Of a stretch of DNA of 64,000 bases, positions 25,855-61,002 are shown piece by piece. Made by a program: the position numbers and the translations under genes. Within the stretch, counting starts at the first letter, position 1; every line of letters begins with the position of its first letter. The notes below the pieces were generated by a model. That model saw only the letters and a program-made list of their open reading frames with translations. It made no database searches and was not told the DNA's origin. The DNA is taken from assembly GCA_958295535.1 (NCBI GenBank), contig OY282356.1:1945614-2009613 (forward strand), read 5' to 3'. This DNA is from Gemmatimonadota bacterium (GTDB lineage Bacteria; Gemmatimonadota; Gemmatimonadetes; Palauibacterales; Palauibacteraceae).

Positions 25855-26106
25855 TCAGCGGCGGAGCTCCCCGTCCAGGAGGTGGTGGAAATCGCCTTCC
25901 CAGAGTTGTGCGGTGGAGCCGTCCTCGTTGACGAGGAACTGGCCGGTTCTGATTTCGGAGATACCGTATTCCGGGAGAGGGACTTGCGCTAGGCACTTGC
26001 CGGCTAATCTCTTGCCGTGCGTCTCGAAATTAAACAACATCACTGCTACGGTCAAGACGCTGGCCGTGGCAGGCAGAACGCGGATGCTGAAGGCCGAGAC
26101 ATCCAT
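25855..26106 (-). pseudogene. Remnant of a GT-C paralog: TM-helix fragment fused to the last ~50 residues of the shared C-terminal domain (internal deletion)
   Basis: MDVSAFSIRVLPATASVLTVAVMLF matches the early TM region of GT-C 52882..54855 (VDVSAFSIRVLPAAASVLTVAALLF). It is fused directly to FETHGKRLAGKCLAQVPLPEYGISEIRTGQFLVNEDGSTAQLWEGDF, which is the CTD tail. It lies immediately upstream of paralog 1 on the minus strand. Confidence 0.6.
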
Positions 26107-26202
26107 TTTCTGGACCGCCCACAGTGCCAGGGGAGGGGATACAATATGGGACTGGAGTTGCCGTAACGGGAGCGAAGGCCATTCCTCGAAGAAACCGCCC
26201 AG

Positions 26203-34422: not shown

Positions 34423-34531
34423 CCGGCAATCGACGGATGGATACCGACCCCAGCCCGAGAGGATTATGCGGCCCGCTCCCGGAACGCGAAGCGCGGACCA
34501 AGAAACGCGGGCGCCGCCGTGCCCGCGCGCG

Positions 34532-36103: not shown

Positions 36104-37931
36104 CTTTGTCCGTACAGTACGCGTAGGCCCTCAGGCGATGGCCAACGTCCGCGGCAGCCGGGGTGTATTGATAGGAGGCCCAGCGGGGCGCGACTTTGGT
36201 CCAACCGGTCGCATCGCTGCCCCGTTCCCATTGCCATGGTTGGAATCTGGCAGACCCGCATTCAAGCCGGGCCGACAATCTGACGCCGAACGGCTCGCCT
36301 GCCACCGGAGCGACAGCGCTGATGAAATAGGCGGGAGCGGGATCGGCGTCGCTGCGAGTTACGCGATAGATCGAACCGTCGGACAACTCGGCCACCAGCT
36401 CCAGTCCCAGCAATTCCCTCAACACGCCGATAGTGGCCGGATACTGCATCGAATCCATCCAAGCGACATAGTCGCCGGGCACAGCCAGTTCTATCTGCCC
36501 TCTCATCGTATCCAGATCGAAGGGAAGATAGTGAAGGTCCGCATGATTCGCGCGGAGGTATATGAAAGATGACACATTGCTGAATATACGGTTCGCCAAT
36601 AGATGCTCTTCAACATACCGCATGACATCCGAGCGGGCCAATACCGGCACCATTCCCATGCCTCGTCCCTCGTTGTTCAATACGATTTCACGCACGTTCA
36701 GCGCCGCCTGTACAGCCAGCCACAGGGAAAGGGCTGTCGCCAGGGTAGCCACCAGCAGGTTCGCCGTTCTGCCCTCTCCCCCGACGATTCTGTTTGAATC
36801 GCCGGCAACCCGCCGGAGGGTTCTCAGGACCTTTCTGGCCGGATCGAGCCCAAGGAACTTGTCCAGCGCAAACACTGCCGCGAACAGGAGCGGGAGATAC
36901 ATAGGAGACAGGTAGCGGCCGCCGAGGGGCGTGAGATCGAAGCCCGCTTGCGCGGCCGTGAGAAAGACGAGGTACACCAGGGCAAAGCCGCCAAACAAGT
37001 GGAAGGGCTCCATCCGGCGCCGTTTCCCCTGCCAGGCACGAACGAACGCGTGGCCGACGGACACCGCCAGCGCCAACAGGGCTACTCCGACCAGCGCCGC
37101 GGCGGCCACCCTGACGCTCCCGGACGGCAAGTAGAGGAATACCCACTGGGCCAGATCGCTCAGGAATTTGTCCAGAATCTCCTGCACCGTATGCGGCGAC
37201 GGGCCGATGCGCCCGCTGAGTCTTCCGTGGAACAGGACGTTCCGCAACAGCCACAGCGCCACCGGCAGCGCGGCGATCGACAGGTACAGGCCGATGCGCT
37301 TCGCTTTATCCAACGGCACGACGCCGCGCTGGAAGATCAGCAGGGGTAAAGTGGCCATGATCAAGGTGACGCCGCTATAGCGGGTCAGAAAGGCCAAGGA
37401 AGCGAACGCCGCCGCCCAAATCAGGTCCGAACGCTTGCCGGTATCCAGAGCCGTGGAAGTCCGAACCAGAGAGAGCGTCACGAACAGGATAAAGGGAGTC
37501 TCGGAAACTGCGTGAGACGCCATCCTGGTCAAGGGGATTGCCAGCATGATGGCGACACAGGCCCAAAGGACCAGGACATGGTGTCGGACATGCCGCCGCA
37601 AGTATTGACCGGCGACGAATAGAGTCAGTCCGAAGGCGGCGGCATTCAACGGCCCGGCGACATCGTAGGGGACAAACACAAAGAGACCGGCAGCGGCGAG
37701 CAGCATCGGATACAGCGGCGGCCAGTGCAAATAGGGCCAGCCGTGAACTTGAACGAAGCCCTCTCCCGCCGACAGACTCTGGGCCGCGGACAGGTAAGCG
37801 GCCCAATCCGCGCTCAGTCCCACTCCGTAAGTGACTTGTCGCGCCAGGATGAGTACCGTGCCCAGCGCTGCAAGGGCGGCAAGGAGCAGGGTGAAACGAT
37901 CGGGCCGCCTGTCTGGCGCCCGTCTACTCAT
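36033..37931 (-). CDS. ArnT/PMT_2-like GT-C membrane glycosyltransferase, paralog 3 (C-terminal WxW module instead of the shared CTD)
   Basis: First-loop motif ADWAAYLSAAQSLSAGEGFV, ~11 TM helices and a periplasmic C-terminal region. It ends FQPWQWERGSDATGWTKVAPRWASYQYTPAAADVGHRLRAYAYCTDKDGNTIRAITAPSAPV, the WxW module shared with 38528..41164. Confidence 0.7.
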   Translation of the reverse strand: MSRRAPDRRPDRFTLLLAALAALGTVLILARQVTYGVGLSADWAAYLSAAQSLSAGEGFVQVHGWPYLHWPPLYPMLLAAAGLFVFVPYDVAGPLNAAAFGLTLFVAGQYLRRHVRHHVLVLWACVAIMLAIPLTRMASHAVSETPFILFVTLSLVRTSTALDTGKRSDLIWAAAFASLAFLTRYSGVTLIMATLPLLIFQRGVVPLDKAKRIGLYLSIAALPVALWLLRNVLFHGRLSGRIGPSPHTVQEILDKFLSDLAQWVFLYLPSGSVRVAAAALVGVALLALAVSVGHAFVRAWQGKRRRMEPFHLFGGFALVYLVFLTAAQAGFDLTPLGGRYLSPMYLPLLFAAVFALDKFLGLDPARKVLRTLRRVAGDSNRIVGGEGRTANLLVATLATALSLWLAVQAALNVREIVLNNEGRGMGMVPVLARSDVMRYVEEHLLANRIFSNVSSFIYLRANHADLHYLPFDLDTMRGQIELAVPGDYVAWMDSMQYPATIGVLRELLGLELVAELSDGSIYRVTRSDADPAPAYFISAVAPVAGEPFGVRLSARLECGSARFQPWQWERGSDATGWTKVAPRWASYQYTPAAADVGHRLRAYAYCTDKDGNTIRAITAPSAPVAKAYDGAG

Positions 37932-41164: not shown

Positions 41165-41305
41165 GCGGCTTCGCGGAGGCGAAGGAGGTATATTGGCAGC
41201 CCTGATCGGAGTGGTGGAGGAGCGAGTCCGGGCGGCGTTGCCGAACGGCCATGTCGAGGAAATCAAGCACGAGTTCGGCGCACTGTCGTCTGCGGAGCGG
41301 CTCTA

Positions 41306-44210: not shown

Positions 44211-44825
44211 ATGACGAGAGCGTTTCGGAAGTCGCGGTGCGCGGTGTTCCTGGACCGGGACGGTACAATTAACCAAGAGGTTCATCATCTTTGTCGACCG
44301 GAGCAACTGCAGTTGTTGCCGGGGGCGTCCGAGGGGCTTCGGAGCCTTCACGAAGCCGGTCACTTGCTGATCGTCGTGACCAATCAGTCTGTGGTCGGGC
44401 GCGGTTGGCTGAACAGAGATCGGCTTGACGAAATTCACCGGCGCCTGAGCGGCATGCTAAATGCCGAAGGAGTGAACATCACTGCCTGGTACGACTGCCC
44501 ACACCATCCGGATGACGGATGTTCGTGCCGCAAACCAGCCATCGGTCTGTTCGAGCGGGGACGTCGAGAGCTCGGGATCTCCCTGGCTCAAGCGTGGATG
44601 GTGGGGGACCGGCTAAGCGATCTGCAAGCCGGTCGCGCGGTTGGTGCACGAACCATTCTGGTCGCAACCGGATATGGGCGCCGGGAGTATCGGCTTCCGC
44701 AGCGTAAAGAGTACGCCGACTACTACGCCGAATCCCTCATAGAGGCCGCTCAAATAATCATGCGACCCGATATCTTGACCGCGGGTCAATGCAAAGGGGC
44801 AGCGGTCTCGGTCGAACCGCCCTGA
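44211..44825 (+). CDS. gmhB: D,D-heptose 1,7-bisphosphate phosphatase (HAD-IIIA)
   Basis: AVFLDRDGTIN (HAD motif I), VVTNQS, and the GmhB Zn-finger-like CPHHPDDGCSCRKP and MVGDRLSDLQAG. Its 3' end overlaps the convergent GT2 gene by 40 nt. Confidence 0.85.
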   Translation: MTRAFRKSRCAVFLDRDGTINQEVHHLCRPEQLQLLPGASEGLRSLHEAGHLLIVVTNQSVVGRGWLNRDRLDEIHRRLSGMLNAEGVNITAWYDCPHHPDDGCSCRKPAIGLFERGRRELGISLAQAWMVGDRLSDLQAGRAVGARTILVATGYGRREYRLPQRKEYADYYAESLIEAAQIIMRPDILTAGQCKGAAVSVEPP

Positions 44826-46861
44826 ACCGGGGTGAAGAAACCGAGTCCCCAGCTCAGGTGCATGGTTACGAGGGCCAGCGGGAGCACGAGCGCGGCGTAC
44901 GAGCGGCGGCGGATGCCGACCGCCAGAGAGCCGAGCAGCAGGACGAGGACATACGCGAGCGGCAGTATCGCTGCCACCCACACCGTGTTGGCCACGGCCA
45001 GGACCGGCGAGACGGACAATGCCAGCAGCAACAGCGGGCTGGCGACATGCCGGGGGAGCAGGGAGACCGGATGTCGTAGCGCCACTACCCGCTTCCACCG
45101 GCCGTAATCGAAATATTGCCGGGCGAGGTCCCGCAAGGTGCCGCGGGGCCGGTAGACGACCACGAGTTGGGGATCGAACCACACCGTTTCCCCGCGCGCC
45201 CGCAGCCGCCAGTTGAGTTCGTAGTCCTGATTTCGAAAGAAGGCGGCGTCGATGCCGCCCACGGCCTCCAGCGCATCGCGCCGGAACGCGCCCAGGAAGA
45301 CGGTGTCGGCGGGACCCTCGGGACCGCCCAGCCGGTAGCGGGCGCCGCCAGCCCCCAGAGGAGTGGTCATCGCCAACCCCACCGCTCGTCCGAAGAACGT
45401 GGTACCGACCGGCTGTTGCCGGCCGCCGACATTGGCCGCACCCGTTCTTTGCAGCGTGCTCACCGCGCGGCGCAGGTATCCGGCCGGCAACACCGTATGG
45501 GCGTCGCACCGCACGATGACCTCTCCGTCCGACACCCGCTGCGCCGCGCGCAATCCGAAGCCGGCGGTCCGTTCCGGATTGGGAACCAGCATCACCGCCG
45601 GATACAGCCGCCGGACCAGATCGGATGTGGCCGACGTGTCGGATCCGTCGGCGACGATCACCTCTACCGAACCCTCGTAGTCCTGAGACAACACCGAATC
45701 GATCGCCCCACCGATGGTCGCCTCGGCGTTCCGAGCCGGGATGAGAACCGACACCCGCGGCAAGGCGCCACCGCCGAGGCGCCGCCCCGGGCGCATCGTC
45801 AGCTCCCTCCTGATCCGCACTGGGGTAAAGAAACCGATTCCCCAACTCAGGTGCATGGTCGCGAGGGCCAGCGGGAGCAGGAGCGCGGCGTACGAACGGC
45901 GACGGATGCCGACCGCCAGAGAGCCGAGCGCCAGGGTGAGCACGTACGCGAGCGGCGCTGCCGCTGCCGCCCAGTAGACGCCGGCCACGGCCAAGACCGT
46001 CGAGGCGGCCAATCCCAACAGCAACAGCGGGCCGGCAAGATGCCGGGGCAGCAGGGATAATCGATGTCGTAGCGCCACTACCCGCTTCCATCGGCCATAA
46101 TTGAAATATTGCCAAGCGAGACCCCGCAAGGTGCTGCGGGGCCGGTAGTCGACCACGAGCTCGGGATCGAACCACACCGTTTCCCCGCGCGCCCGAAGCC
46201 GCCAGTTGAGTTCGTAGTCCTCGCCCCCCCCTAGGGTAGGGTCGACGCCGCCCACCGCCTCCAACGCATCGCGCCGGAACGCGCCCAGGAAGACGGTGTC
46301 GGCGGGCCCCCCGGGACCGCCCATCCGGTAGCGGGCGCCGCCAGCCCCCAGGGGAGTGGTCATCGCTATCGCCACCGCGCGCCCGAAGAACGTGACGCCG
46401 ACCGGCCGTTGCCGGCCGCCGACGTTGGCCGCCCCCGTCCTTTGCAACGTGCTCACCGCGCGACGCAGGTATCCGGCCGGCAACACCGTATGGGCGTCGC
46501 ACCGCACGATGACCTCTCCGTCCGCCGCCCGGTACGCCGCGTGGATTCCGTGCGTGATGACCTGCTCCAGATTGGGAACCAGCGTCACTGTCGGGTACAG
46601 CCGCCGAACCAAGTCGGATGTGGCCGACGTGTCGGATCCGTCGGCGACGATTACCTCTACCGAACCCTCGTAGTCCTGAGACAACACCGAGTCGATCGCC
46701 GCCCCGATGGTCGCCTCGGCGTTCCTAGCCGGGATGAGAACCGACACCGGCGGCAGTCGAGTCGCAACGGCCGGCTGCGGGACGACAATGGAATTCTCCT
46801 TCATGTCCCATGACTGCAATGGTGTCGAACCGGATGCCACCGGCAAGCGTTCAGTTTTCAC
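44786..46861 (-). CDS. Tandem GT2 glycosyltransferase fusion: two complete GT2 + C-terminal TM modules in one 691-aa ORF (module 1 45797..46861 lacks a stop; module 2 starts at ATG 45796 with its own RBS)
   Basis: Module 1 (MKTERLPVASGS...VSVLIPARNAEATIGAAIDSVLSQDYEGSVEVIVADGSD...DAH..., three TM helices, ...HLSWGIGFFTPV) runs without a stop through RIRRELT into module 2 (MRPGRRLGGGALPRVSVLIPARN...HLSWGLGFFTPVQGGSTETAAPLH*). atcAGGAGGGAgctgacgATG lies at the junction. The modules are ~90% identical. A third, frameshifted copy is at 48453..49557. Confidence 0.6.
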   Translation of the reverse strand: MKTERLPVASGSTPLQSWDMKENSIVVPQPAVATRLPPVSVLIPARNAEATIGAAIDSVLSQDYEGSVEVIVADGSDTSATSDLVRRLYPTVTLVPNLEQVITHGIHAAYRAADGEVIVRCDAHTVLPAGYLRRAVSTLQRTGAANVGGRQRPVGVTFFGRAVAIAMTTPLGAGGARYRMGGPGGPADTVFLGAFRRDALEAVGGVDPTLGGGEDYELNWRLRARGETVWFDPELVVDYRPRSTLRGLAWQYFNYGRWKRVVALRHRLSLLPRHLAGPLLLLGLAASTVLAVAGVYWAAAAAPLAYVLTLALGSLAVGIRRRSYAALLLPLALATMHLSWGIGFFTPVRIRRELTMRPGRRLGGGALPRVSVLIPARNAEATIGGAIDSVLSQDYEGSVEVIVADGSDTSATSDLVRRLYPAVMLVPNPERTAGFGLRAAQRVSDGEVIVRCDAHTVLPAGYLRRAVSTLQRTGAANVGGRQQPVGTTFFGRAVGLAMTTPLGAGGARYRLGGPEGPADTVFLGAFRRDALEAVGGIDAAFFRNQDYELNWRLRARGETVWFDPQLVVVYRPRGTLRDLARQYFDYGRWKRVVALRHPVSLLPRHVASPLLLLALSVSPVLAVANTVWVAAILPLAYVLVLLLGSLAVGIRRRSYAALVLPLALVTMHLSWGLGFFTPVQGGSTETAAPLH

Positions 46862-48482: not shown

Positions 48483-49557
48483 ACCGCCCTGAACCGGGGT
48501 GAAGAAACCGATTCCCCAGCTACCGATTCCCCAGCTCAGGTGCATGGTCGCTAGGGCCAGCGGGAGCAGGAGCGCGGCGTACGAACGGCGACGGATGCCG
48601 ACCGCCAGAGAGCCGAGCGCCAGGGTGAGCACGTACGCTAGCGGCACTGCCGCTGCCGCCCAGGAGGCGCCGGCCACGGCCAAGACCGACGAAGCGGCCA
48701 ATCCCAGCAGCAACAGCGGGCTGCCGAGATGCCGGGGCAGCAGGGATAATCGATGTCGTAGCGCCACGACCCGCTTCCATCGGCCGTAATCGAAATATTG
48801 CCAAGCGAGACCCCGCAAAGTATTGCGGGGATGGTAGTCGACCACGAGCTCGGGATCGAACCACACCGTTTCCCCGTTCCCCGCGCGCCCGAAGCCGCCA
48901 GTTGAGTTCGTAGTCCTCGGCTCGCACAAGGGTAGGGTCGACGCCGGCCACCGCCTCCAACGCATCGCGCCGGAACGCGCCCAGGAAGACGGTGCGAGCA
49001 GGCCCCTCCGCGCCGCCCAGCCGGTAGCGGGCGCAGCCGGCCCCCAGGGGAGTGGTCATCGCCATCGCCACCGCGCGCCCGAAGAACGTGACGCCGACCG
49101 GCCGTTGCCGGCCGCCGACGTTCGCCGCCCCCGTCCTTTGCAACGTGCTCACCGCGCGGCGCACGTATCCGGCCGGCAACACCGTATGGGCGTCGCACCG
49201 CACGATGACCTCTCCGTCCGCCGCCCGGTACGCCGCGTGGATTCCGTGCGTGATGACCTGCTCCAGATTGGGAACCAGCGTCACTGTCGGGTACAGCCGC
49301 CGAACCAAGTCGGATGTGGCCGACGTGTCGGATCCGTCGGCGACGATTACCTCTACCGAACCCTCGTAGTCCTGAGACAACACCGAGTCGATCGCCGCCC
49401 CGATGGTCGCCTCGGCGTTCCGAGCCGGGATGAGAACCGACACCGGCGGCAGTCGAGTCGCAGCGGCCGGCTGCGGGACGACAATGGAATTCTCCTTCAT
49501 GTCCCATGACTGCAATGGTGTCGAACCGGACGCCACCGGCAAGCGTTCAGTTTTCAC
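48453..49557 (-). pseudogene. GT2 glycosyltransferase, third copy, frameshifted (split into ORFs 48520..49557 and 48453..48965)
   Basis: The N-terminal 228 aa are ~95% identical to module 1 of 44786..46861. The frame is lost after RLRARGE, and the conserved continuation (TVWFDPELVVDY...GFFTPVQGGSTETAAPLH*) appears in another frame. Small local duplications are present (WGIGSWGIG; ccgattccccagct x2). Confidence 0.65.
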
Positions 49558-50209: not shown

Positions 50210-51367
50210 CTATCTTGGGCGATGGTCACCCGCATTTTGCTGCCGCCGGTTCGTGGAGGTGGCCACCGGCTTCATCCCGTAGCAACTGCGGCAATAGTGC
50301 GGAATGTCGTTGTCGGCAATTCGTCGGCGCAGTTCCCTGTATTTGTCGTTGTTCCAAACATCGGCGAATGGCTCACTAAAAACGTTGCCCATTTTTACGA
50401 CGCTGGAATCGGCTATTTGACAGCAGGGGACGACGTCGCCGTTGGCGGCAATGTAGGAACTCTGCCAAGGCCAGGGACAGCGGTTCGCCCTGGAATACCT
50501 TTGACCATGCTCGACGCTGAGCGGCATCCCGATCTCGGCGGCGACTTCTCTCGACTTCCGGATAGTCCGGTCCACCCGGGCATCTTCCCTGGAAACGTCT
50601 ATCGACGCAATTGACTCCTCCATCTCCTCTTTTCCCCAGTCGGTCAGCAAGGTCGTTATAGTCAATTTGTCCACGCCGAGGCGTTTCGCCAGCCGCACCA
50701 AGTCCGGCAGTTCGTGGGCATTCCGGAGCGTAACGACCGACCGCAGTTCGATCCCGGGCCAGACGCTGCGGCCGCGGCGGCGGACTAGGTCGGCGACATT
50801 GTCGACCACCTTCTGAAAGTTGCCGTTGACCCGGATTGCCTCGAACGTCTCTGCCGTCGCGCCGTCCATGCTGATGATAATCGTCGTTCCCCGCAGGCAG
50901 CTAAGCTGCTTGGCGATATTCTCGGTATAAACCGAACCATTGGTTACGATGGAGATGGCCCTCCCCCCAATCTCTCCCTCTTCCAGCATCTCGATCAGAT
51001 GCCGGTTCAGCAGGGGTTCTCCCATTCCCTGGAGCTTGATCTGACGAAGCATCGGCAACTGACGGAGAATCGAAATGAACCGCTCGGTGGTCAACCGGGT
51101 CGTCTTCCGCGCCCAGTGCGTCACTTGGCAATGGTCGCAGGCAAAGTTGCACGTATCGATCGGCTCGACGTCAACGCTGGTGGGCAGGAAAGGAGTCCTT
51201 TTCAGCCCGAGAAGCTTGGCTGCCCGCCCGCCGACGGTGTGATAGAACTTTCGAGGACTACCCATTCCTGCCCGGCGCCATAGTCGAAAGAGACTTCGGA
51301 AACTATGATTCATTTCCAAGCGAACTCCACATAGCCTGATTTTTTGTCCCCGCCTACCGTCACGCAT
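50210..51367 (-). CDS. Radical SAM protein with C-terminal SPASM-like Cys-rich domain
   Basis: CxxxCxxC motif (IDTCNFACDHCQV), a radical SAM core (LQGMGEPLLN) and a C-terminal Cys cluster (CPWPWQSSYIAANGDVVPCCQ...YCRSCYG). The start is uncertain (MNHSF at 51313 or MGSPRKF at 51265). A 3' fragment copy lies at 58456..58700. Confidence 0.75.
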   Translation of the reverse strand: MRDGRRGQKIRLCGVRLEMNHSFRSLFRLWRRAGMGSPRKFYHTVGGRAAKLLGLKRTPFLPTSVDVEPIDTCNFACDHCQVTHWARKTTRLTTERFISILRQLPMLRQIKLQGMGEPLLNRHLIEMLEEGEIGGRAISIVTNGSVYTENIAKQLSCLRGTTIIISMDGATAETFEAIRVNGNFQKVVDNVADLVRRRGRSVWPGIELRSVVTLRNAHELPDLVRLAKRLGVDKLTITTLLTDWGKEEMEESIASIDVSREDARVDRTIRKSREVAAEIGMPLSVEHGQRYSRANRCPWPWQSSYIAANGDVVPCCQIADSSVVKMGNVFSEPFADVWNNDKYRELRRRIADNDIPHYCRSCYGMKPVATSTNRRQQNAGDHRPR

Positions 51368-51415: not shown

Positions 51416-51675
51416 CTAGGCCGATAACGAAATTGTAGGCCCCATGGTGAGCAGATGATTAAACGTCATGCCGTACATGGCCATCACGACAACCCATCCG
51501 ACGACTGAATCTCTGCCCAGTGGCTTCGGCACAGTCCAAAGCAACCGCATCAAGAATAACAGAGACAGCAAGCACAATGCCAATGGAATAATACCCGCTT
51601 CGCCAGCCAGTATCAGGTACACGTTGTGGACTCCAGTCGGTTCCCCCCGGTTTCCGATGGGGGCGCCAACGCCAC
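51416..51675 (-). pseudogene. Fragment of a Wzy_C (O-antigen ligase/polymerase) paralog C-terminus
   Basis: GAPIGNRGEPTGVHNVYLILAGEAGIIPLALCLLSLLFLMRLLWTVPKPLGRDSVVGWVVVMAMYGMTFNHLLTMG is ~85% identical to the C-terminus of 63324..64000. It is fused at ~51675 to the 3' end of the FAD-oxidoreductase pseudogene. Confidence 0.5.
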
Positions 51676-52892
51676 CGCGACGGTCCGAGCAACCTCCCGG
51701 CCCTGCCGGATCGCATAGTTCGTGCCCCGGTCTTCCAGATAGATCTGGGCCATGGTCGCCAGAAACAGGTTCGTCACAGGCATGCGCGTAGGGGGAATCA
51801 GCCGGCGGTAGCCGCGCTCCACGACGGGCTGCGCGTAGCGCGCGCGCCAGACGTGGGCAGCCAGTATCCGGTCGTCCGTCAGGTCGGGAAACATCCGCCG
51901 CAGGTGTTCGAGCGTGAACGCGACCGCTTCCTCGTCCGGCATCCCCCACAGCGCGTCGCTCTCGGGCAGATAGCGGGACAGATACACGATGTGCCGCCCG
52001 GCGTAGGTCGAGGCAGGCTCGAAGTTGGTGTGCTCGATGACTCCCACGAAGGGGAAGCCGGGGTCGTTGACGTTCAGCCAGTAGATGTCCGACAGGCTGC
52101 AGTCGAGCTCGAGCACGACGCACACATTGGCCAGATAGCGGATGCGCCGCAGGCCGTCCACGTAATCGCCCGGCGCGTACCCGCAAGCCCGTGACCGGAG
52201 CTCCGGTGCGGATTTCTCCACCTTGGTCTCGGATGGCCCGGGCCAGCGCGTCGGCGAGGGCTGCGAAGCCGCCGCGGTAATAGGCCAGCCGTTCCCTGCC
52301 GCCTCTGCCGCGGCTGCCGCCCCTGAGCTTGAGCTTGTTCCAGAACCACACCGCCGCCACCTCTTCCGCCAAGTCGCCGAACTTGCCCCGCAGGAGCGGC
52401 GCCCACACCACCCGGTAGACCCGCTCGCCACCCATGTCCCGCAGCCAGTCGGCCGCGGTGCGGTCTTCAAGGCCGCTCCACTCCTTCACCCGGCGCACGC
52501 GCAATGCCAGCAGCCCCAGCCGGATGCGGTCGAAGAACGGAAGGGGCGAGAAGCGCAGGAGGTCGAGGGGCGTCGAGAGCTTGAAGAAGTCGTGGGCGTA
52601 GTACGTGCTGGTCCGGGTAGGACGCAGCACCACCTCGGCCGACCGGCCCAACTCCGCGATGAGATTCATCACATGGACGTCGCTGGTGAACCAGTGGTGG
52701 TAGAACTTCTCGAGCCGCACCGGCGGCGGGAAAGCTGCCGGCGAGGCCGCCGACTTCGGCGTCCCGCTCCAGCACCGTGGCGCGTAGGCCGCGCCGGCCC
52801 AACTCGTAGGCCGCGGCTAGCCCGCAGAAGCCGCCGCCGATCACCGCGACATGGGGCCGGGCAGACGCCGGCCGTCGTGGGCTACTTGTCAA
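51676..52892 (-). pseudogene. FAD/NAD(P)-binding oxidoreductase (amine-oxidase/phytoene-desaturase-like fold), copy A; frameshifted by a 107-bp deletion and 3'-replaced
   Basis: Colinear with the intact copy 54852..56201 (HVAVIGGGFCGLAAAYELGRRG...). It lacks the 107-bp segment present at 55378..55484, which is bounded by a cgcgt direct repeat, and this causes a frameshift (ORFs 51613..52470, 51416..52720 etc.). Its 3' end is joined to the Wzy_C fragment. Confidence 0.6.
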
Positions 52893-54855
52893 AACGAATT
52901 TCCCCTTCCCAGAGGTGTGCGGTGGAGCCGTCCTCGCGGACGAGGAACTGGCCGGTGCGGACGCGGGCGATGGCGTAGTCGGGAAGCTCGCGCAGAGCGA
53001 CGCACCGCTCGGCTGACCGAAACCAACGGCCACCACGGTCGTTGACGCGGAAGTCGAGGTTGTCGAAGCCGTACTGCTTTCTGTGATCAGGAAGGTCGTT
53101 CTCGTCCGCCGGGACAACATGCAGGAAGAAGGTTTCCTGCGCGTCCTCTGCACCGCACGACTCCTTGACATAGATCAACATGTCCTCGGTGAGATGGACA
53201 TCGAAGGTGGAGCGGATTGACGGCTTACGAGTCAAGATTGCCTCCAAATCTCTCACCGCATCAGTAGCGTGACGGTTTATCAAGGCTGCCGCATCTTCAA
53301 TCAGATAGACGTCATGGGGTCCAAACACGACCTGCTCAACCGAAAGCCCGGACATATCCGGTAGCCAGGGACCGACAAACCAGATTCTTCCGTCCACGAT
53401 GCCGGACCAGTGGGCCAAATCAGCCATCTCGCGGAGACACGACTTGGAGGAGCGCCAGCACCAACCGGAGTTTCCATAGTGGTAATTGGCCGGTCTTTCT
53501 TCATTTCCTCGATAGAACCGCATGGCCGGGACCGCCCCCCAGTCTGCGTAGACCATGTCCTCTTCCCGCACCCGTTCTTTCAGTACGGCGAGAACGGATT
53601 CGATGTTTACGGCAAGAGCGGGATCGATGTTTTCACGTGTCTGGTACGGACTGTCCTGCCGCATGGCGCCCACCCCGGCAAGCACCATCGCGCCGGCCAT
53701 CGCAACGAGCAAGGCCGGCGTCGTCCACCCCCGGCGCGTGAGCGAGGACAAACGACCGGCGGTCCAATGAAACGCCAAGCCGACCGCCAGGAAGACAATC
53801 GGACCCAGATAGATGGTCTGGCGAATGCCCCCAAGCGGATATATTCGCAGCACGGCAGCACCGACCAGAACTGCAAGGGAAAGCGAAAATAAAACTGCGA
53901 TGGCACCGTCAATGGGGTTTCCTCGAAACTTTCCGAGGAGTGCTGTGGCGAGGAGGATCGCGAATGCGGCAAGCGCCGCTATCGCAACGACATCCGGCAA
54001 ATGATACGTCAATAGACTCCAGATCCCGTCAATCGAAAACTCGAAGACCTCGAGGATCGAGTGCGGGTAGAATTTTCCCTGATAGTAATACGGTCGCAGA
54101 TAGCCGGTCGGGGCGAAGTCCGGTGCACCCAACTGATAGCGCGCAGTCATCAAGTAGCTTGTGGCACCTCCCGCCAGAAAGCACGCCGCTGGCGCGAGCA
54201 GGGCGATGCGCTGCCTGAGCCAATGAGGAATCCGGCTCAGGTACGAGTTCCATTCCGATGCCCCTAAAGTCGGGGGGGGGGGCAGAACCACAGCGGCGCC
54301 AATGACGGCGACGCCGAACAGAACCAAGCCGTACTGGAGCAAGGGCGCGAGGAACAGCGCAACGCAGAGCAGGGCCTTCCGGCCGTGCCGCAGATACCAC
54401 AGCAGTCCCGCTATCATCAGCGTGGCCAGCAGCGCGTCGATGGAGTATTCGCGCGCATCCTGGGCGTGATATATCGCGGCAACCGAAAGAGTCGCCAGCA
54501 GCGCCGCCAGAAACGCGGCCCACCGGCTCGCTCCGGCGCGGGGAAGCAGAAAGAGCAGGGCCGCCACGGTCAGAACGCTGGCCGCCGCCGGCAGAACGCG
54601 GATGCTGAAGGCGGATACATCCACTTTCTGCACCGCCCACAGCGCCAGAGGGTACAGTATAGGCGAGGAGTTCCCGTAGCGGGTATTGGGGACTACTTCC
54701 GAGAGAGCGCCACTCGAATTATTGGCCGCTGCCGCTTCGTCATGCCGTAGAGACTTCTCCGGCAGGTCATGGAAGCGCAGCCCTGCCGCGGCGACAAGCA
54801 GGCAAACACAGGCCGCGTAGAACAGATGCGTTTTGCGGTCCCAGCTGAATGTCAT
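52882..54855 (-). CDS. ArnT/PMT_2-like GT-C membrane glycosyltransferase, paralog A, with shared C-terminal domain; contains a C11 homopolymer
   Basis: ATG 54855 (MTFSWDRKTHLFYAACVCLLVAAAGLRFHDL...); the listed 943-aa ORF adds an out-of-frame overlap with the upstream gene. First-loop motif LRHDEAAAANNS (ArnT-like DE), ~12 TM helices. CTD: SIRSTFDVHLTEDMLIYVKESCGAEDAQETFFLHVVPADENDLPDHRKQYGFDNLDFRVNDRGGRWFRSAERCVALRELPDYAIARVRTGQF. About 85-90% identical to paralog B. Confidence 0.75.
   Translation of the reverse strand: MTFSWDRKTHLFYAACVCLLVAAAGLRFHDLPEKSLRHDEAAAANNSSGALSEVVPNTRYGNSSPILYPLALWAVQKVDVSAFSIRVLPAAASVLTVAALLFLLPRAGASRWAAFLAALLATLSVAAIYHAQDAREYSIDALLATLMIAGLLWYLRHGRKALLCVALFLAPLLQYGLVLFGVAVIGAAVVLPPPPTLGASEWNSYLSRIPHWLRQRIALLAPAACFLAGGATSYLMTARYQLGAPDFAPTGYLRPYYYQGKFYPHSILEVFEFSIDGIWSLLTYHLPDVVAIAALAAFAILLATALLGKFRGNPIDGAIAVLFSLSLAVLVGAAVLRIYPLGGIRQTIYLGPIVFLAVGLAFHWTAGRLSSLTRRGWTTPALLVAMAGAMVLAGVGAMRQDSPYQTRENIDPALAVNIESVLAVLKERVREEDMVYADWGAVPAMRFYRGNEERPANYHYGNSGWCWRSSKSCLREMADLAHWSGIVDGRIWFVGPWLPDMSGLSVEQVVFGPHDVYLIEDAAALINRHATDAVRDLEAILTRKPSIRSTFDVHLTEDMLIYVKESCGAEDAQETFFLHVVPADENDLPDHRKQYGFDNLDFRVNDRGGRWFRSAERCVALRELPDYAIARVRTGQFLVREDGSTAHLWEGEIRFDK
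54272..54282 (-). repeat. Homopolymeric tract G11 (C11 on the coding strand) inside GT-C paralog A, encoding Pro-Pro-Pro-Pro
   Basis: cccctaaagtcGGGGGGGGGGGcagaacc on the plus strand; on the coding strand gtt ctg ccc ccc ccc ccg act tta gives VLPPPPTLG. Paralog B has no tract at the equivalent position (..LVAPRVSGQARW..). Confidence 0.9.
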
Positions 54856-56201
54856 CCTGCACCTTCCGACGCCGCCGCGACGGTCCGGGCAACCTCCCGG
54901 CCCTGCCGGATCGCATAGTTCGTGCCCCGGTCTTCCGGATAGATCTGGGCCATCGTCGCCAGAAACAGGTTCGTCACAGGCATGCGCGTAGGGGGGATCA
55001 GCAGCCGGTAGCCGCGCTCCACGACGGGCTGCGCGTAGCGCGCGCGCCAGACGTGGGCAGCCAGTATCCGGTCGTCCGTCAGGTCGGGAAACATCCGCCG
55101 CAGGTGTTCGAGCGTGAACGCGACCGCTTCCTCGTCCGGCATCCCCCACAGCGCGTCGCTCTCGGGCAGATAGCGGGACAGATACACGATGTGCCGCCCG
55201 GCGTAGGTCGAGGCAGGCTCGAAGTTGGTGTGCTCGATGACTCCCACGAAGGGGAAGCTTGGGTCGTTGACGTTCAGCCAGTAGATGTCCGACAGGCTGC
55301 GGTCGAGCTCGAGCACGACGCACACATTGGCCAGATAGCGGATGCGCCGCAGGCCGTCCACGTAATCGCCCGGCGCGTGAGGCGCCACGAGGTCGGCGAC
55401 GATGGGCAGCGCCGGCGTCGCGATCACGGCGTCGGCGGCCAGCGTCGCCTCCGGCGTGACCACGCCGGTCCCCCGCCCGTCGCGTACCCGCAAGCCCGTG
55501 ACCGGAGCTCCGGTGCGGATTTCTCCACCTTGGTCTCGGATGGCCAGGGCCAGCGCGTCGGCGAGGGCTGCGAAGCCGCCGCGGTAATAGGCCAGCCGTT
55601 CCCTGCCGCCTCTGCCGCGGCTGCCGCCCCTGAGCTTGAGCTTGTTCCAGAACCACACCGCCGCCACCTCTTCCGCCAAGTCGCCGAACTTGCCCCGCAG
55701 GAGCGGCGCCCACACCACCCGGTAGACCCGCTCGCCACCCATGTCCCGCAGCCAGTCGGCCGCGGTGCGGTCTTCAAGGCCGCTCCACTCCTTCACCCGG
55801 CGCACGCGCAATGCCAGCAGCCCCAGCCGGATGCGGTCGAAGAACGGAAGGGGCGAGAAGCGCAGGAGGTCGAGGGGCGTCGAGAGCTTGAAGAAGTCGT
55901 GGGCGTAGTACGTGCCGGTCCGGGTAGGACGCAGCACCACCTCGGCCGACCGGCCTAACTCCGCGATGAGATTCATCACATGAACATCGTTGGTGAACCA
56001 GTGGTGGTAGAACTTCTCGAGCCGCGCACCGCCGGCGGGAAAGCTGCCGGCGAGGCCGCCGACTTCGGCGTCCCGCTCCAGCACCGTGGCGCGTACGCCG
56101 CGCCGGCCCAACTCGTAGGCCGCGGCTAGCCCGCAGAAGCCGCCGCCGATCACCGCGACATGGGGCCGGGCAGACGCCGGCCGTCGTGGGCTACTTGTCA
56201 A
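54852..56201 (-). CDS. FAD/NAD(P)-binding oxidoreductase (amine-oxidase/phytoene-desaturase-like fold), intact copy B
   Basis: Rossmann dinucleotide motif RPHVAVIGGGFCGLAAAYELGRRGVRATVLERDAEVGGLAGSF, then ~400 aa (..YYRGGFAALADALA..; ..GVVTPEATLAADAVIATPALPIVADLV..). The start is ambiguous: TTG 56201 overlaps the upstream GT-C stop; GTG 56153 is the alternative. The upstream part of the listed 542-aa ORF is out-of-frame overlap with GT-C B. Confidence 0.7.
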   Translation of the reverse strand: MTSSPRRPASARPHVAVIGGGFCGLAAAYELGRRGVRATVLERDAEVGGLAGSFPAGGARLEKFYHHWFTNDVHVMNLIAELGRSAEVVLRPTRTGTYYAHDFFKLSTPLDLLRFSPLPFFDRIRLGLLALRVRRVKEWSGLEDRTAADWLRDMGGERVYRVVWAPLLRGKFGDLAEEVAAVWFWNKLKLRGGSRGRGGRERLAYYRGGFAALADALALAIRDQGGEIRTGAPVTGLRVRDGRGTGVVTPEATLAADAVIATPALPIVADLVAPHAPGDYVDGLRRIRYLANVCVVLELDRSLSDIYWLNVNDPSFPFVGVIEHTNFEPASTYAGRHIVYLSRYLPESDALWGMPDEEAVAFTLEHLRRMFPDLTDDRILAAHVWRARYAQPVVERGYRLLIPPTRMPVTNLFLATMAQIYPEDRGTNYAIRQGREVARTVAAASEGAG

Positions 56202-58173
56202 AACGAATTTCCCCTTCCCAGAGGTGTGCGGTGGAGCCGTCCTCGCGGACGAGGAACTGGCCGGTGCGGACGCGGGTGATGGGGTAATCGGGAAGCTTGC
56301 GCAGAGCGACGCACCGCTCGGCTGACCGAAACCAACGGCCACCACGGTCGTTGACGCGGAAGTCGAGGTTGTCGAAGCCGTACTGCTTTCTGTGATCAGG
56401 AAGGTCGTTCTCGTCCGCCGGGACAACATGCAGGAAGAAGGTTTCCTGCGCGTCCTCTGCACCGCACGACTCCTTGACATAGATCAACATGTCCTCGGTG
56501 AGATGGACATCGAAGGTGGAGCGGATTGACGGCTTACGAGTCAAGATTGCCTCCAAATCTCTCACCGCATCAGTAGCGTGACGGTTTATCAAGGCTGCCG
56601 TATCTTCAATCAGATAAACGTCATGGGGTCCAAACACGACCTGCTCAACCGAAAGCCCGGACATATCCGGTAGCCAGGGACCGACAAACCAGATTCTTCC
56701 GTTTGCGATGCCGAGCCAGTAGGCCAAGTCAGCCATCTCACGGAGACACGAATTGGAGGAGTTCCCGCACCAACCGGAGGTCCCATAGTGGTAATTGGCC
56801 GGTCTTTCTTCATTTCGTTGATAGAACTGCAAGATCGGGACTGCCCCCCAGCCTGCGTAGACCATGTCCTCTTTCCGCATCCGTTCTTTCAGTACGGCGA
56901 GAACGGATTTGATGTTGTTACGTATCTGGTACGGACTGTCCTGCCGAATGGCGCCCACCCCGGCAAGCACTGTCGCGCCGGCCATCGCAACGAGCAAGGC
57001 CGGCGTCGTCCACCCCCGGCGGGTGAGCGAGGACAAACGACCGGCGGTCCAATGAAACGCCAAGCCGACCGCCAGGAAGACAATCGGACCCAGATAGATG
57101 ACTTGGCGGGTGCCTCCAAGCGGATATATTCCCAGCACGGCGGCACCGACAGAAACCGCAAGGGAAAGCGAAAATAGAACTGCGATGGCGCCGTCATGGG
57201 GCTTTCCTCGAAACTTTCCGAGGAATGCTGCGACCAGGAGGATCGCGAATGCGGCAAGTGCCGCTATCGCAACGACATCCGGCAAATGATATGTCAATAG
57301 ACTCCAGATCCCGTCAATCGAAAACTCGAAGACCTCGAAGATCGAGTGCGGGTAGAATGTTCCCTGATAGTAATACTGTCGCAGATAGCCGGTCGGGGCG
57401 AAGTCCGGTTGACCCCACTGATGGCGTACAGTCACCAAGTAGCTGACGGTACTCCCCGCCAGGAAGAACCCACAGGGCGCGACCAAGTCCAGGCGTCGTT
57501 TCAACCAGCCACCGATCCGGCCAGGATAGGCACTCCACCTTGCCTGTCCGGAGACGCGTGGAGCGACGAGGGCGGCGCCAATGACGGCGGCGCCGAACAG
57601 GACCAAACCGTACTGGAGCAACGGCGCAAGGAACAGCGAAACGCAAAGCAGGGCCTTCCGGCCGTCCCGCAGATGTCGCAGCAGCCCCGCCATCATCAGC
57701 ACGGTAAGCAGTGCGTCGATAGAGTATTCCCGCACATCCTGGGCGTGCCAGATTGCTTCAACGGAAAGCGTGGCGAGCAGGGCCGCCAGAAACGCGGCGC
57801 CCCGAGCGACGCCGAGACGCGGCAGCAAGAAGAGCATCAAGGCGATGGTCAGAACGCTGGCCGTCGCCGGCACGATTCGAACGCTGAAGGGCGTGCTCTC
57901 GACTTTCTGGACCGCGTACAGGACCAGGGGGTACAGGATTGGAGAGGAGTTAGCGTAACGGGTACCGGGGATGACTTCCGAGAGCGCACCTCTCGAAATA
58001 TTGGCCGCTGCCGCTTCGTCATGCCGTAGAGACTTCTCCGAAAGGTCATGGAAGCGCAGCCCCGCCGCGGCGACAAGCAGGCAGACACAGGCGGCGTAGT
58101 ACAGACGCGTTTTGCGGTCGCGGCCGAAATCAGCGATGCGCCGGGTCATGGCGCGCATCCCTATCGCTCGCAT
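56191..58173 (-). CDS. ArnT/PMT_2-like GT-C membrane glycosyltransferase, paralog B, with shared C-terminal domain
   Basis: 660 aa. LRHDEAAAANISRGALSEV first-loop motif, ~12 TM helices, CTD identical in motif to paralog A (...FFLHVVPADENDLPDHRKQYGFDNLDFRVNDRGGRWFRSAERCVALRKLPDYPITRVRTGQF). Confidence 0.75.
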   Translation of the reverse strand: MRAIGMRAMTRRIADFGRDRKTRLYYAACVCLLVAAAGLRFHDLSEKSLRHDEAAAANISRGALSEVIPGTRYANSSPILYPLVLYAVQKVESTPFSVRIVPATASVLTIALMLFLLPRLGVARGAAFLAALLATLSVEAIWHAQDVREYSIDALLTVLMMAGLLRHLRDGRKALLCVSLFLAPLLQYGLVLFGAAVIGAALVAPRVSGQARWSAYPGRIGGWLKRRLDLVAPCGFFLAGSTVSYLVTVRHQWGQPDFAPTGYLRQYYYQGTFYPHSIFEVFEFSIDGIWSLLTYHLPDVVAIAALAAFAILLVAAFLGKFRGKPHDGAIAVLFSLSLAVSVGAAVLGIYPLGGTRQVIYLGPIVFLAVGLAFHWTAGRLSSLTRRGWTTPALLVAMAGATVLAGVGAIRQDSPYQIRNNIKSVLAVLKERMRKEDMVYAGWGAVPILQFYQRNEERPANYHYGTSGWCGNSSNSCLREMADLAYWLGIANGRIWFVGPWLPDMSGLSVEQVVFGPHDVYLIEDTAALINRHATDAVRDLEAILTRKPSIRSTFDVHLTEDMLIYVKESCGAEDAQETFFLHVVPADENDLPDHRKQYGFDNLDFRVNDRGGRWFRSAERCVALRKLPDYPITRVRTGQFLVREDGSTAHLWEGEIRFDK

Positions 58174-58633
58174 CGGGCCTCCCCCGCGGCGTCCGGCCGG
58201 ATCGCTCCGAAGACGGCGGCATTCAACGGCCCGGCGACACGCAAAACAGCCGAAGCGTCCAGTATCTTCAAGGATTGCTCAGAGACGCGGGGGCCCTTGT
58301 GCATTGTCGGCCAAGGGAACGAAGAACGCTTTGTTGGCCACCTTGTCCTCCTTGATTCGCTGTAACAGACGCCTGAAGCCAAGATGGCGCAGAGCAAAAG
58401 CCGCACCAGTGCCCAAAGGCCGAGAGCCACAAAGACCTGGCACCCACCGCCAAGTTCACGGCTCGTCGCGGCGTGCGGTCGAACTTCGGCGCTCCGCAGA
58501 GGGAAGGCAAGATTGCGGCCGCGGGTCCGTGGAGGCGGCTACCCGCTTCATCCCGTAGCAACCGCGGCAATAGTGCGGAATGTCGCCGCTGGCAATTCGC
58601 CGACGCAGCTCCCGGTATTTGTCGTTGTTCCAA
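58161..58633 (-). pseudogene. Degraded sulfotransferase paralog fragment
   Basis: LCGAPKFDRTPRRAVNLAVGARSLWLSAFGHWCGF and SEQSLKILDASAV match the C-terminal region of 41306..42160 (LCRAPKFDRVPRQAANQAVAARSLWLSAFGHWCGF; SEESLGVLDASAV). There is no N-terminal PAPS-binding part and the frame is broken. Confidence 0.5.
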
Positions 58634-58700
58634 ACATCGGCTTGTCCACCGAGGCGGATCAAGAGTTCGGATTTTCTGATAATCTCATCTATCTGCGGCG
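58456..58700 (-). pseudogene. 3' fragment of a radical-SAM/SPASM paralog
   Basis: ADVWNNDKYRELRRRIASGDIPHYCRGCYGMKRVAAST matches the C-terminus of 50210..51367 (ADVWNNDKYRELRRRIADNDIPHYCRSCYGMKPVATST). The nucleotide match begins ~58530. Confidence 0.5.
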
Positions 58701-58787
58701 AATGGTCTTCCTGGCGGTAGAGAAAAATATGTCTATCGCGGTCGCGACGGAAACGGACGATGCGTCGGGCTATGGCGCGCGCATCCC

Positions 58788-60138
58788 TTATCGCTCGCAT
58801 CGGGCCTCCACCTCGACTCCCGTCCAGATCGTTGTAGCTGCGCGGTTGTTTGGAGGTCTCCTCCGAATCAAGGGCCATGCGATGTACCGAGAACCCGTCA
58901 TCGCGCACCGTCCGACGCCGCCGCGACGGTCCGGGCAACCTCCCGGCCCTGCCGGATCGCATAGTTCGTGCCCCGGTCTTCCGGATAGATCTGGGCCATC
59001 GTCGCCAGAAACAGGTTCGTCACAGGCATGCGCGTAGCGGGGATCAGCAGGCGGTAGCCGCGCTCCACGACGGGTTGCGCGTAGCGCGTGCGCCAGACGT
59101 GGGCAGCCAGTATCCGGTCGTCCGTCAGGTCGGGAAACATCCGCCGCAGGTGTTCGAGCGTGAACGCGACCGCTTCCTCGTCCGGCATCCCCCACAGCGC
59201 GTCGCTCTCGGGCAGATAGCGGGACAGATACACGATGTGCCGCCCGGCGTAGATCGAGGCAGGCTCGAAGTTGGTGTGCTCGATGACTCCCACGAAGGGG
59301 AAGCTTGGGTCGTTGACGTTCAGCCAGTAGATGTCCGACAGGCTGCGGTCGAGCTCGAGCACGACGCACACATTGGCCAGATAGCGGATGCGCCGCAGGC
59401 CGTCCACGTAATCGCCCGTCGCGTACCCGCAAGCCCGTGACCGGAGCTCCGGTGCGGATTTCTCCACCTTGGTCTCGGATGGCCAGGGCCAGCGCGTCGG
59501 CGAGGGCTGCGAAGCCGCCGCGGTAATAGGCCAGCCGTTCCCTGCCGCCTCTGCCGCGGCTGCCGCCCCTGAGCTTGAGCTTGTTCCAGAACCACACCGC
59601 CGCCACCTCTTCCGCCAAGTCGCCGAACTTGCCCCGCAGGAGCGGCGCCCACACCACCCGGTAGACCCGCTCGCCACCCATGTCCCGCAGCCAGTCGGCC
59701 GTGATGCGGTCTTCGAGGCCGCTCCACTCCTTCACCCGGCGCACGCGCAATGCCAGCAGCCCCAGCCGGATGCGGTCGAAGAACGGAAGGGGCGAGAAGC
59801 GCAGGAGGTCGAGGGGCGTCGAGAGCTTGAAGAAGTCGTGGGCGTAGTACGTGCCGGTCCGGGTAGGACGCAGCACCACCTCGGCCGACCGGCCCAACTC
59901 CGCGATGAGATTCATCACATGAACATCGTTGGTGAACCAGTGGTGGTAGAACTTCTCGAGCCGCACCGGCGGCGGGAAAGCTGCCGGCGAGGCCGCCGAC
60001 TTCGGCGTCCCGCTCCAGCACCGTGGCGCGTACGCCGCGCCGGCCCAACTCGTAGGCCGCGGCTAGCCCGCAGAAGCCGCCGCCGATCACCGCGACATGG
60101 GGCCGGGCAGACGCCGGCCGTCGTGGGCTACTTGTCAA
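58788..60138 (-). pseudogene. FAD/NAD(P)-binding oxidoreductase, copy C; carries the same 107-bp frameshifting deletion as copy A
   Basis: Colinear with copy B. It is split over ORFs 58788..59966, 58898..59677 and 59320..60303. The deletion point (...atcgcccgtcgcgtacccgcaagcc...) is the same as in copy A. Confidence 0.6.
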
Positions 60139-61002
60139 AACGAATTTCCCCTTCCCAGAGGCGTGCGGCGGAGCCGTCCTCGCGGACGAGGTACTGGCCG
60201 GTTCTGATTTCGGAGATGCCGTATTCCGGGATAGGGACCGTTGCCAGGCACTTGTCATCGAATCTGTCGCCGTGCCGGTCGAAATAGAAGTCCAGGTTGT
60301 CAAAGCCGTTCCGCTTGCGATCGTCTGGCAGGTCTGCCACCTCGACGGGATACAGGTGCAGAAAGAACGCCGCCTCCGTGTCGGCGCGGGCGCACGGGTC
60401 CTTGGCGAAGATCAGACTTCCCTCGCCAAGATAGACGTCGAACACACTGCGAACCGCTGGCTCGCCGACAGTCGCCGACGACAAGTGGGCGTCTAGCCAC
60501 CGCCGTTTCTCCTTGAACCAGCGCTCCACTTCCCAAAGGAGATTCCAATCGCGGTCAACCTGTCCGGTTCGGTAGCCGCTTTCACATAGTTGCCGAACTG
60601 CCACCAACTCTAGCAAGGGGTCCCGAGACAAGGCGCTTCGGGGGTCGTCGGCCTGCTGCCGAGAGCACTCTAACCCCTGGTCACGGAAATGGAAATAGAG
60701 GACGTGCACCTCTCCGCCGCCAAGTGTGGTCGACCATGCGGACCGTAGATGATCCGGTTCGCATGGCAGGGCGTAATGGCGTCGCGGACTGTCGGCGTAC
60801 AATGCCATGACGGAGACGGCATTGCTCCGGATCGCGCCTGTCAGAGCCGCCTCCCGAATGTACTGGACGCTCTCCGAATTCCTCTACCGCGGGGTGGCAA
60901 ACGCATGTTGCGCACCGGCATTCCAGCGCGGCATCTCGCGGGCATTCAGCACAACCAGCCAAACCGCCTGCAGGGACAGCGCCAACATCAGGACGGCCGC
61001 GA
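60128..61002 (-). pseudogene. Deletion derivative of a GT-C paralog related to 38528..41164: mid-region fragments + intact shared C-terminal domain only
   Basis: ORF 60128..60808 contains HYALPCEPDHL...SRQQADDPRSALSRDPLLE and GQVDRDWNLLWEVERWFKEKRRW, which match internal segments of paralog 4. It ends with a full CTD (VRSVFDVYLGEGSLIFAKDPCARADTEAAFFLHLYPVEVADLPDDRKRNGFDNLDFYFDRHGDRFDDKCLATVPIPEYGISEIRTGQYLV...). No TM/GT-C core. 60700..61000 matches 39750..40050 in another frame. Confidence 0.6.

Follow-up and report, generated by a model that had tools for sequence, protein, structure and literature searches.

An unbroken run of 11 cytosines (C11) lies within a gene predicted to encode a GT-C membrane glycosyltransferase (gene A), in a 64,000-nucleotide stretch of contig OY282356.1 from a Gemmatimonadota bacterium (this whole stretch is called the window below). 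Based on a comparison of the tract with its counterparts in homologous loci, we consider it likely that C11 of gene A is a functional, stochastic on/off switch that operates by slipped-strand mispairing. The sequences support the conclusion that the tract site behaves as a slipped-strand contingency locus, as they combine a long repeat, length polymorphism between strains, alleles in both frame states, and downstream open reading frames (ORFs) that have been kept. The two features at the center of this proposal are the following.

54272..54282, minus strand: C11 homopolymer in codons 192-195 (PPPP) of the coding strand, at present in frame; proposed slipped-strand switch
52882..54855, minus strand: GT-C paralog A, 657 aa, assigned from sequence, alignment, an AlphaFold2 model, and PDB matches

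On the plus strand, positions 54272..54282 are an unbroken G11; read on the coding strand of ORF 52882..54855, this is C11. The tract codons, ctg CCC CCC CCC CCg act, are translated in frame as V-L-P-P-P-P-T-L-G-A-S-E-W (VLPPPPTLGASEW). C11 is the sole homopolymer of at least 9 bases within the window; the next-longest runs are a C8 at 46224..46231 and then four 7-mers. In 100 dinucleotide-preserving shuffles of the window, 0.05 runs of at least 9 bases were expected per window (one or more such runs in 4 of the 100), and a first-order Markov estimate gave ∼0.03-0.06. Gene A thus contains one feature expected of a homopolymer contingency locus, an unbroken mononucleotide run in an ORF that has at least ∼8-9 nt and is longer than composition predicts. 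The tract is unusual for one window, and by itself this would not decide the matter genome-wide. Homopolymeric tracts have been reviewed in a general survey (PMC2831843). Analysis of the window with Tandem Repeats Finder identified no further contingency-type repeats. Among the proline codons of the window genes, CCC makes up 35% and CCG 48%; the tracts are nonetheless pure CCC, which points to slippage rather than to selection for proline.

A change of one nucleotide in the tract of gene A shortens the predicted product to 196 aa (C10) or 275 aa (C12), and C8, C11, and C14 are in frame. An initial annotation of this DNA had reported the G11/C11 run encoding four prolines, the rarity of tracts of nine or more bases, and truncation by a ±1 change; the above analysis confirmed the run and the truncation, and the rarity for this window. 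In the mechanism that we propose, C11 would gain or lose cytosines through slipped-strand mispairing during replication, as extrapolated to gene A from its homologs. Tracts of 8, 11, or 14 nt would retain the 657-aa enzyme; tracts of 10 or 12 nt would lead to a stop after 196 or 275 residues, with loss of two-thirds of the membrane domain and the entire soluble domain. C11 would have to vary at an appreciable rate, and switching would be reversible within a lineage, so that the population would be a heritable, reversible mix of cells with and without the transferase and hence with differing surface glycans. Such a glycan change might be useful against phages or in host recognition.

The initial annotation had proposed that the site be compared in related genomes, and this comparison provides the main evidence for the switch. 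The GT-C family of gene A comprises 716 representatives at E <= 1e-30 and is multi-copy, with up to 5 tandem copies per locus. Relatives that are 55-75% identical were found in chromosome-level metagenome-assembled genomes (MAGs) labelled Nitrospirales, Candidatus Entotheonella, Gammaproteobacteria, Latescibacteria, Dehalococcoidia, and Pseudomonadales (loci L001-L024), a mix of taxa that suggests a sponge or similar host microbiome. Long poly-C runs in the homolog loci, from MAGs labelled Entotheonella, Dehalococcoidia, and others, map to the exact codon of the window tract, between the conserved segments "...GAAVVL/LLT" and "TL.APE.N.YLSRIRNWL." They are 13-24 nt long and occur in both frame states, as listed here together with the window allele.

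In-frame alleles: window C11; L002 C13; L023 C13; L041 C14; L040 C17
Out-of-frame alleles: L042 C15; L009, L016 (two copies), and L043 C18; L045 C19; L010 and L044 C21; L021 C24

At this site, 5 alleles are in frame and 9 are out of frame, and the shifted downstream frame is open for 448-683 codons in every out-of-frame allele. A change in tract length therefore toggles the frame in the homologs while the downstream ORF is kept. The out-of-frame state was found in 5 of 9 tract-bearing copies compared with 3 of 32 tract-less ones (Fisher p = 0.007). When runs of at least 11 nt were collected from loci fetched purely by homology, 8 of the 14 lay at this one GT-C codon, and no A or T run of at least 10 nt was present in 664 kb of homolog loci. 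When a protein collection was searched with residues 1-200 of A, at least 27 of the 99 short ORFs recovered stop right after 4-10 prolines at the tract site, with tails that are out of frame. Full-length family proteins with P5 and P6 at the site also occur, and members of single 90%-identity protein clusters vary in the length of the proline run and in the frame of the tail. A scan of Joint Genome Institute (JGI) metagenomes with protein A found no relative, and a scan of the same resource with the alignment recovered only relatives that are 30-40% identical, come from other environments, and have no run at the site.

The repeat length also varies at the same locus between close strains. Four syntenic loci from one assembly (ERZ19489113; L042-L045) share a thiamine pyrophosphate (TPP) enzyme, a GT-C, the tract-bearing GT-C, and an iron-containing alcohol dehydrogenase (Fe-ADH), and are 96-97% identical at the nucleotide level; their tracts are C15, C18, C21, and C19, respectively. 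The corresponding distances between flanking anchors are 24, 27, 29, and 26 nt, so that two distinct off phases and no on phase are represented. Three of these loci are on circular contigs of ∼3.38 Mb. ERZ19489113 thus includes three or more closed genomes of ∼3.38 Mb with 96-97% identity at the locus, which shows that close strains coexist and can be compared directly. In a second pair of syntenic genes that are 94% identical, L041 has a C14 tract and a 650-aa ORF and L021 has a C24 tract and a split ORF. From the homolog tracts of C13-C24, the strain-level length differences, and the presence of both frame states, the slipped-strand explanation given in the initial annotation is supported for the site. 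We infer length variation of the window C11 itself by homology, as the protein cluster P0001 has one member.

These length differences bear on whether the runs could be sequencing or assembly artefacts. In long-read consensus sequences, errors occur chiefly in homopolymers. The contig names (ptg...c/l) suggest PacBio HiFi/hifiasm assemblies, which calls for caution with single ±1 calls at runs of at least 18 nt. However, independent assemblies have runs at the tract codon, and the lengths differ by 3-10 nt, gaps that cannot be ±1 consensus errors, and the window tract is in frame with both flanks matching those of its homologs. Short PPP or PPPP loops are common in the family, as would be expected if the run were a poly-proline linker selected at the level of the protein, but the exclusive use of CCC despite the preference for CCG, together with the frequent frame breaks, opposes such selection. 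We regard an artefact or a selected linker as very improbable.

A second alternative is recoding, in which RNA polymerase or the ribosome slips on the poly-C so that a tract of any length yields a fixed fraction of full-length enzyme and the run tunes expression. Transcriptional slippage at long homopolymers is known to rescue frameshifted genes in insect endosymbionts, and slippage rescue would allow what is seen in the four co-occurring strains and in all tracts of at least 18 nt, which are out of frame yet have downstream ORFs that are open and constrained. The fixed out-of-frame arrangement among strains that marks programmed frameshift sites was not found, however: in-frame and both out-of-frame phases occur, and the window allele, an in-frame gene with an 11-nt C run, needs no rescue. 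Recoding is thus an improbable explanation, less so than an artefact.

To consider how the runs arose, we compared the loop sequences and the phylogeny of the family. The loop alleles closest to A read CTG CCT CCC CCG (L022-L024), from which the window allele differs by a T>C change plus one CCC. At L016, a third tandem paralog reads ACC CCA CCG, with flanks identical to those of its two C18 neighbours. In a tree built from 230 residues downstream of the site, the tract-bearing copies are scattered, each beside a tract-less paralog, which indicates repeated expansion from a proline-rich loop. The possibility that the tract marks the point at which recombination joined a conserved N-terminal module to a variable remainder was rejected because the pattern of ∼80% versus ∼50% identity is also present in tract-less copies; the strong N-terminal and weaker C-terminal conservation is a family-wide feature that is unlinked to the tract. 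The N-terminal fragment closest to A (L039, 92% identical) was uninformative on the switch, as it is a decayed pseudogene with an interrupted CCTCCCCCG and a frameshift outside the tract. As a separate observation, individual proteins of the GT-C family combine A-like with B-like segments (P0002 is one example; B is the neighbouring paralog described below). Together with the cross-phylum similarity, this mosaicism points to horizontal transfer and recombination among co-resident bacteria.

These independent expansions beside tract-less paralogs would also be expected of a neutral hot spot, in which a C-rich proline loop repeatedly seeds an expanding poly-C, the frameshifted copies are young pseudogenes, and C11 is an early, harmless stage with no role in switching. 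This alternative shares much of its support with the points that weigh against a switch at C11. All tracts of at least 18 nt are out of frame, and among the ten tracts of at least 15 nt only the C17 is in frame (9 of 10 are out); such an excess of off states among long tracts could reflect runaway expansion in copies that were already dispensable, or homopolymers that were mis-sized. The family contains true pseudogenes (L039, L019, L011 14512, and the window remnant at 25888..26171), and with up to five tandem copies per locus the high paralogy and these pseudogenes indicate that loss of single copies is evidently tolerated. The ratio of nonsynonymous to synonymous substitution rates (dN/dS) among L042-L045 is 0.30-0.58 downstream of the tract and 0.08-0.25 upstream, which shows that constraint is relaxed downstream. 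In addition, every other tract in the series is longer than C11, and the switching rate of C11 may be far below that of C15-C24; no other contig was returned when protein A and an identical database copy were looked up exactly, and cluster P0001 is single-member; and the chance expectation of 0.05 per 64 kb for the G11 is not negligible across many scanned windows.

Against the neutral explanation, the downstream ORF of L042-L045 is exactly 460 codons long and open in all four diverged strains, and its dN/dS is below 1, so that, judged by these ratios, the downstream ORF of the out-of-frame alleles is under purifying selection. On and off alleles of one syntenic gene exist (C14 versus C24), and the presence of both off phases at one locus requires repeated length changes without decay of the ORF. 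Long runs also occur in a DNA methyltransferase and, just past the start codon, in other glycan genes, which together are the usual contingency repertoire. Based on these considerations, a neutral hot spot is unlikely, if less so than recoding, and slipped-strand switching is the reading that we prefer.

Several lines of evidence support the assignment of gene A, made in the initial annotation, to the GT-C glycosyltransferases; we describe it as a PMT/ArnT-like membrane enzyme (CAZy GT39/GT83 neighbourhood). Protein A is predicted to have an N-terminal multi-helix GT-C domain (∼residues 1-410) followed by a soluble C-terminal part that finishes in a ∼110-aa beta-sandwich domain. The AlphaFold2 model, built with a 100-sequence alignment, has a predicted local distance difference test (pLDDT) score of 91 and a predicted template modeling (pTM) score of 0.89; in this model the tract falls in a lower-confidence loop, residues 191-210, after the helix at 175-190. 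When the model was compared with PDB structures, all 19 matches (E <= 1e-3, probability 1.00; template modeling (TM) scores of 0.35-0.55) were GT-C enzymes, including EmbC, ALG12, ArnT, ALG9, STT3, AftA, DPY19, Pmt4, AftD, and AftB. Residues D39-E40, in the first loop after helix 1, are invariant across the 100-sequence alignment (27-100% identity); this loop presumably faces the periplasm. Homologs from other environments that are 30-35% identical match PF13231 PMT_2 and are named glycosyltransferase family 39, and N-terminal fragments of the family carry precomputed PF02366 matches. Protein A itself scored 17.7 bits against Pfam PF02366 PMT, under the cut-off of 22.7, and matched NCBIfam TIGR03663 (Agl23) weakly (E = 3.5e-5, far below the family cut-off). 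A Pfam scan of paralog B gave no PMT match, and a PDB sequence search with the family profile returned nothing useful. Protein A may use a sugar donor linked to polyprenyl phosphate at the outer membrane face; the gene context in the window comprises a UbiA and FAD_binding_4 (DprE1-like) pair, GT2 and GT4 genes, a Wzx-like flippase, and Wzy_C.

Homolog islands also carry long runs outside the GT-C genes, at the positions below (coordinates are those of each locus).

L002, 8895..8906: C12 in codons 3-6 of a DPM1/ArnC-like GT2
L018, 2028..2043: C16 just past the start codon of a membrane-protein family with the GEEISWGQRIFGF motif and an A-type C-terminal domain
L020, 16671..16683: C13 just past the start codon, same membrane-protein family as the L018 C16
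L015, 15299..15322: C24 just past the start codon, same membrane-protein family as the L018 C16
L018, 458..476: C19 in a loop of another protein with an A-type C-terminal domain
L007, 15866..15878: C13 in a linker of a protein with an A-type C-terminal domain
L040, 17783..17794: coding-strand G12 in an N6_N4 DNA methyltransferase, over its F.GxG S-adenosylmethionine (AdoMet) motif, beside a ResIII helicase

Several of the poly-C runs in these other genes, which range from 12 to 24 nt, are out of frame. The methyltransferase G12 is in frame in the sole allele seen and is a candidate phasevarion. The classes of gene that bear runs, surface glycan genes and a DNA methyltransferase, are typical of contingency loci.

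Within the window, gene A belongs to a repeated module in which a GT-C is paired with a flavin adenine dinucleotide (FAD) amine oxidase. The neighbouring genes of this module are listed here.

56191..58173, minus strand: GT-C paralog B, 660 aa, 83% identical to A, tract absent
54852..56480, minus strand: gene of the FAD amine-oxidase type, located between B and A, with a stop that overlaps the A start (ATGA)
51416..52720, minus strand: second FAD amine oxidase copy, 96-97% identical, directly downstream of A

Paralog B reads GCT CCA CGC GTC (APRV) at the tract site. A and B diverge most in the loop around the tract, and their final ∼500 nt are identical. The initial annotation was thus correct that B has ordinary sequence at this site, but its description of the paralogs as near-identical holds for the final ∼500 nt and not for the proteins, which share only 83% identity. 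That the ends of A and B are 100% identical while their middles diverge suggests recent gene conversion. The ATG of gene A at 54855 overlaps the TGA of the preceding oxidase ORF, so that A is probably co-transcribed with and translationally coupled to it; the start listed for this ORF lies within the end of B and was probably placed too far upstream. The downstream oxidase copy at 51416..52720 may be exposed to polar effects while A is out of frame. The pairing of GT-C and oxidase recurs in L022-L024. In the window the module is repeated across 51416..59966 on the minus strand, with oxidases at 51416-52720, 54852-56480, and 58788-59966 that are 96-97% identical. A short fragment at 58510..58641, between paralog B and an oxidase copy, is 80% identical to residues 335-378 of a radical S-adenosylmethionine (SAM)/SPASM protein (50210..51367) and is another remnant of segmental duplication.

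The window as a whole is one large surface-polysaccharide island. Its genes encode more PMT_2-like GT-Cs, a Wzy_C protein, a Wzx-like flippase, and GT2, GT4, sulfatase-type, and radical SAM enzymes, as well as a UbiA and FAD_binding_4 (DprE1-like) pair and the three GT-C-linked FAD amine oxidase copies; one permease and one dehydrogenase are the gene content outside glycan functions. At 33130..37931 (minus strand), the UbiA prenyltransferase and FAD_binding_4 (DprE1-like) genes adjoin a PMT_2-type GT-C, an arrangement that resembles the decaprenyl-phospho-pentose donor pathway of the mycobacterial arabinosyltransferases. At 25888..26171 (minus strand), an internally deleted GT-C remnant joins the equivalent of A residues 58-102 (88-92% identical) almost directly to 613-653. 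The ∼110-aa C-terminal beta-sandwich of A (FDV.L...Y.KEPC...FFLH..P.D..DLP..R...GFDNLDF) is likewise found at the C-terminus of at least five further ORFs in the island.

2569..4992, 23877..25847, 30842..33133, 38528..41266, and 60128..60808: ORFs ending in an A-type C-terminal domain

This domain is present in up to 10 copies in a single library protein (P0124), and it gave no match to Pfam or NCBIfam models.

The initial annotation had also proposed a second, shorter switch in a GT2 gene.

46224..46231, minus strand: C8 on the plus strand, G8 on the coding strand (LGGGED), just ahead of the ED motif in module 1 of the double GT2 gene 44786..46861

The tract exists in module 1 as described, and a G7 would cut the protein to 260 aa. 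At this site, the homologous GT2 modules of the window and of L022 read LVRAED or FVRNQD and lack a run, so that nothing except tract length favours a switch at 46224..46231, and its candidacy lacks comparative support. As a further observation on this gene family, the GT2 ORF 48520..49557 (minus strand) has a 7-bp tandem duplication (GGGGAAC on the coding strand) around 48876..48889 compared with module 1 of 44786..46861; this shifts the frame after "...RLRARGE," and the gene is probably inactivated or mis-assembled.

Poly-G and poly-C tracts control surface-glycan contingency genes in several host-adapted pathogens, including the lipooligosaccharide (LOS), capsule, and flagellin-glycosylation loci of Campylobacter jejuni, lgtA/lgtC/lgtD and pgl of Neisseria, futA/futB of Helicobacter pylori, and glycosyltransferases of Haemophilus. 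The site in gene A resembles these loci in having an unbroken G/C run inside a glycosyltransferase ORF in which a ±1 change truncates the enzyme, in the differences in length and phase between close strains, and in the presence of runs in several island genes and a DNA methyltransferase. It differs in that the enzyme is a GT-C integral membrane transferase rather than a soluble GT-A or GT-B protein, the run is found in a loop that connects membrane helices, one-third of the way along the gene, the bacteria concerned are uncultivated and GC-rich and belong to several phyla rather than being AT-rich pathogens, and the tracts reach 24 nt, with repeated expansion at one codon of an apparently cross-phylum family.

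Three other systems offer partial parallels. The gtrABC genes of Salmonella and Shigella phages direct phase-variable O-antigen modification by GtrC-type membrane transferases, with epigenetic switching (Dam/OxyR at the promoter). They share with the mechanism proposed for gene A the stochastic on/off control of a membrane transferase that depends on a polyprenyl-phosphate sugar and decorates a surface polysaccharide, and differ from it in relying on promoter epigenetics with no repeat in the coding sequence. The glpK gene of Mycobacterium tuberculosis has a 7C run that undergoes reversible homopolymer frameshifts, with variation within clonal populations. As in gene A, a poly-C in a GC-rich genome toggles a gene by ±1 frameshift, but glpK is a metabolic gene with a short run for which clonal variation has been shown, whereas the evidence for gene A is comparative. 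Phasevarions are repeat-controlled mod methyltransferases; the N6_N4 methyltransferase of L040, with its G12 beside a ResIII helicase, resembles them, and is a single in-frame allele outside the window.

The mechanism that we propose is already well known. What is new is that the enzymes are of the GT-C class, that the organisms are uncultivated, GC-rich, and drawn from multiple phyla, that a widely shared family has undergone recurrent expansion at a single codon, and that length variants coexist within one metagenome. In the literature on sponge symbionts, we found no report of repeat-mediated phase variation. A broader reading, which we hold tentatively and consider nearly evenly balanced, is that uncultivated symbionts of several phyla, probably from sponges, share a set of glycan genes in which poly-C runs have recurrently evolved. 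This set would appear to include the GT-C family, membrane proteins with the same C-terminal beta-sandwich, and a DPM1-like GT2; its runs would recur at a single codon in the GT-C genes and at the 5' ends of their partner genes, with runs also in a restriction-modification methyltransferase. It would constitute a contingency system outside pathogens, in mutualists of an early-branching animal, in which coexisting strains in one host differ mainly in the glycan genes that are in the on state, with phages or phagocytosis by the host as the presumed selective pressure.

Repeat-driven phase variation of glycans is textbook knowledge for a few cultured, mostly AT-rich pathogens, and the same logic would here apply in GC-rich, uncultivated bacteria of several phyla, whose GT-C membrane transferases share 55-83% identity from one phylum to another. 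If the proposal is correct, off-phase genes may account for many of the "split" or "pseudogene" annotations in long-read MAGs from these organisms, and the loci identified above are ones at which read-level length counts would measure switching directly. The way in which host-associated symbionts diversify their surfaces, be it as an escape from phages or as protection from ingestion by the host, would also become accessible to concrete tests.

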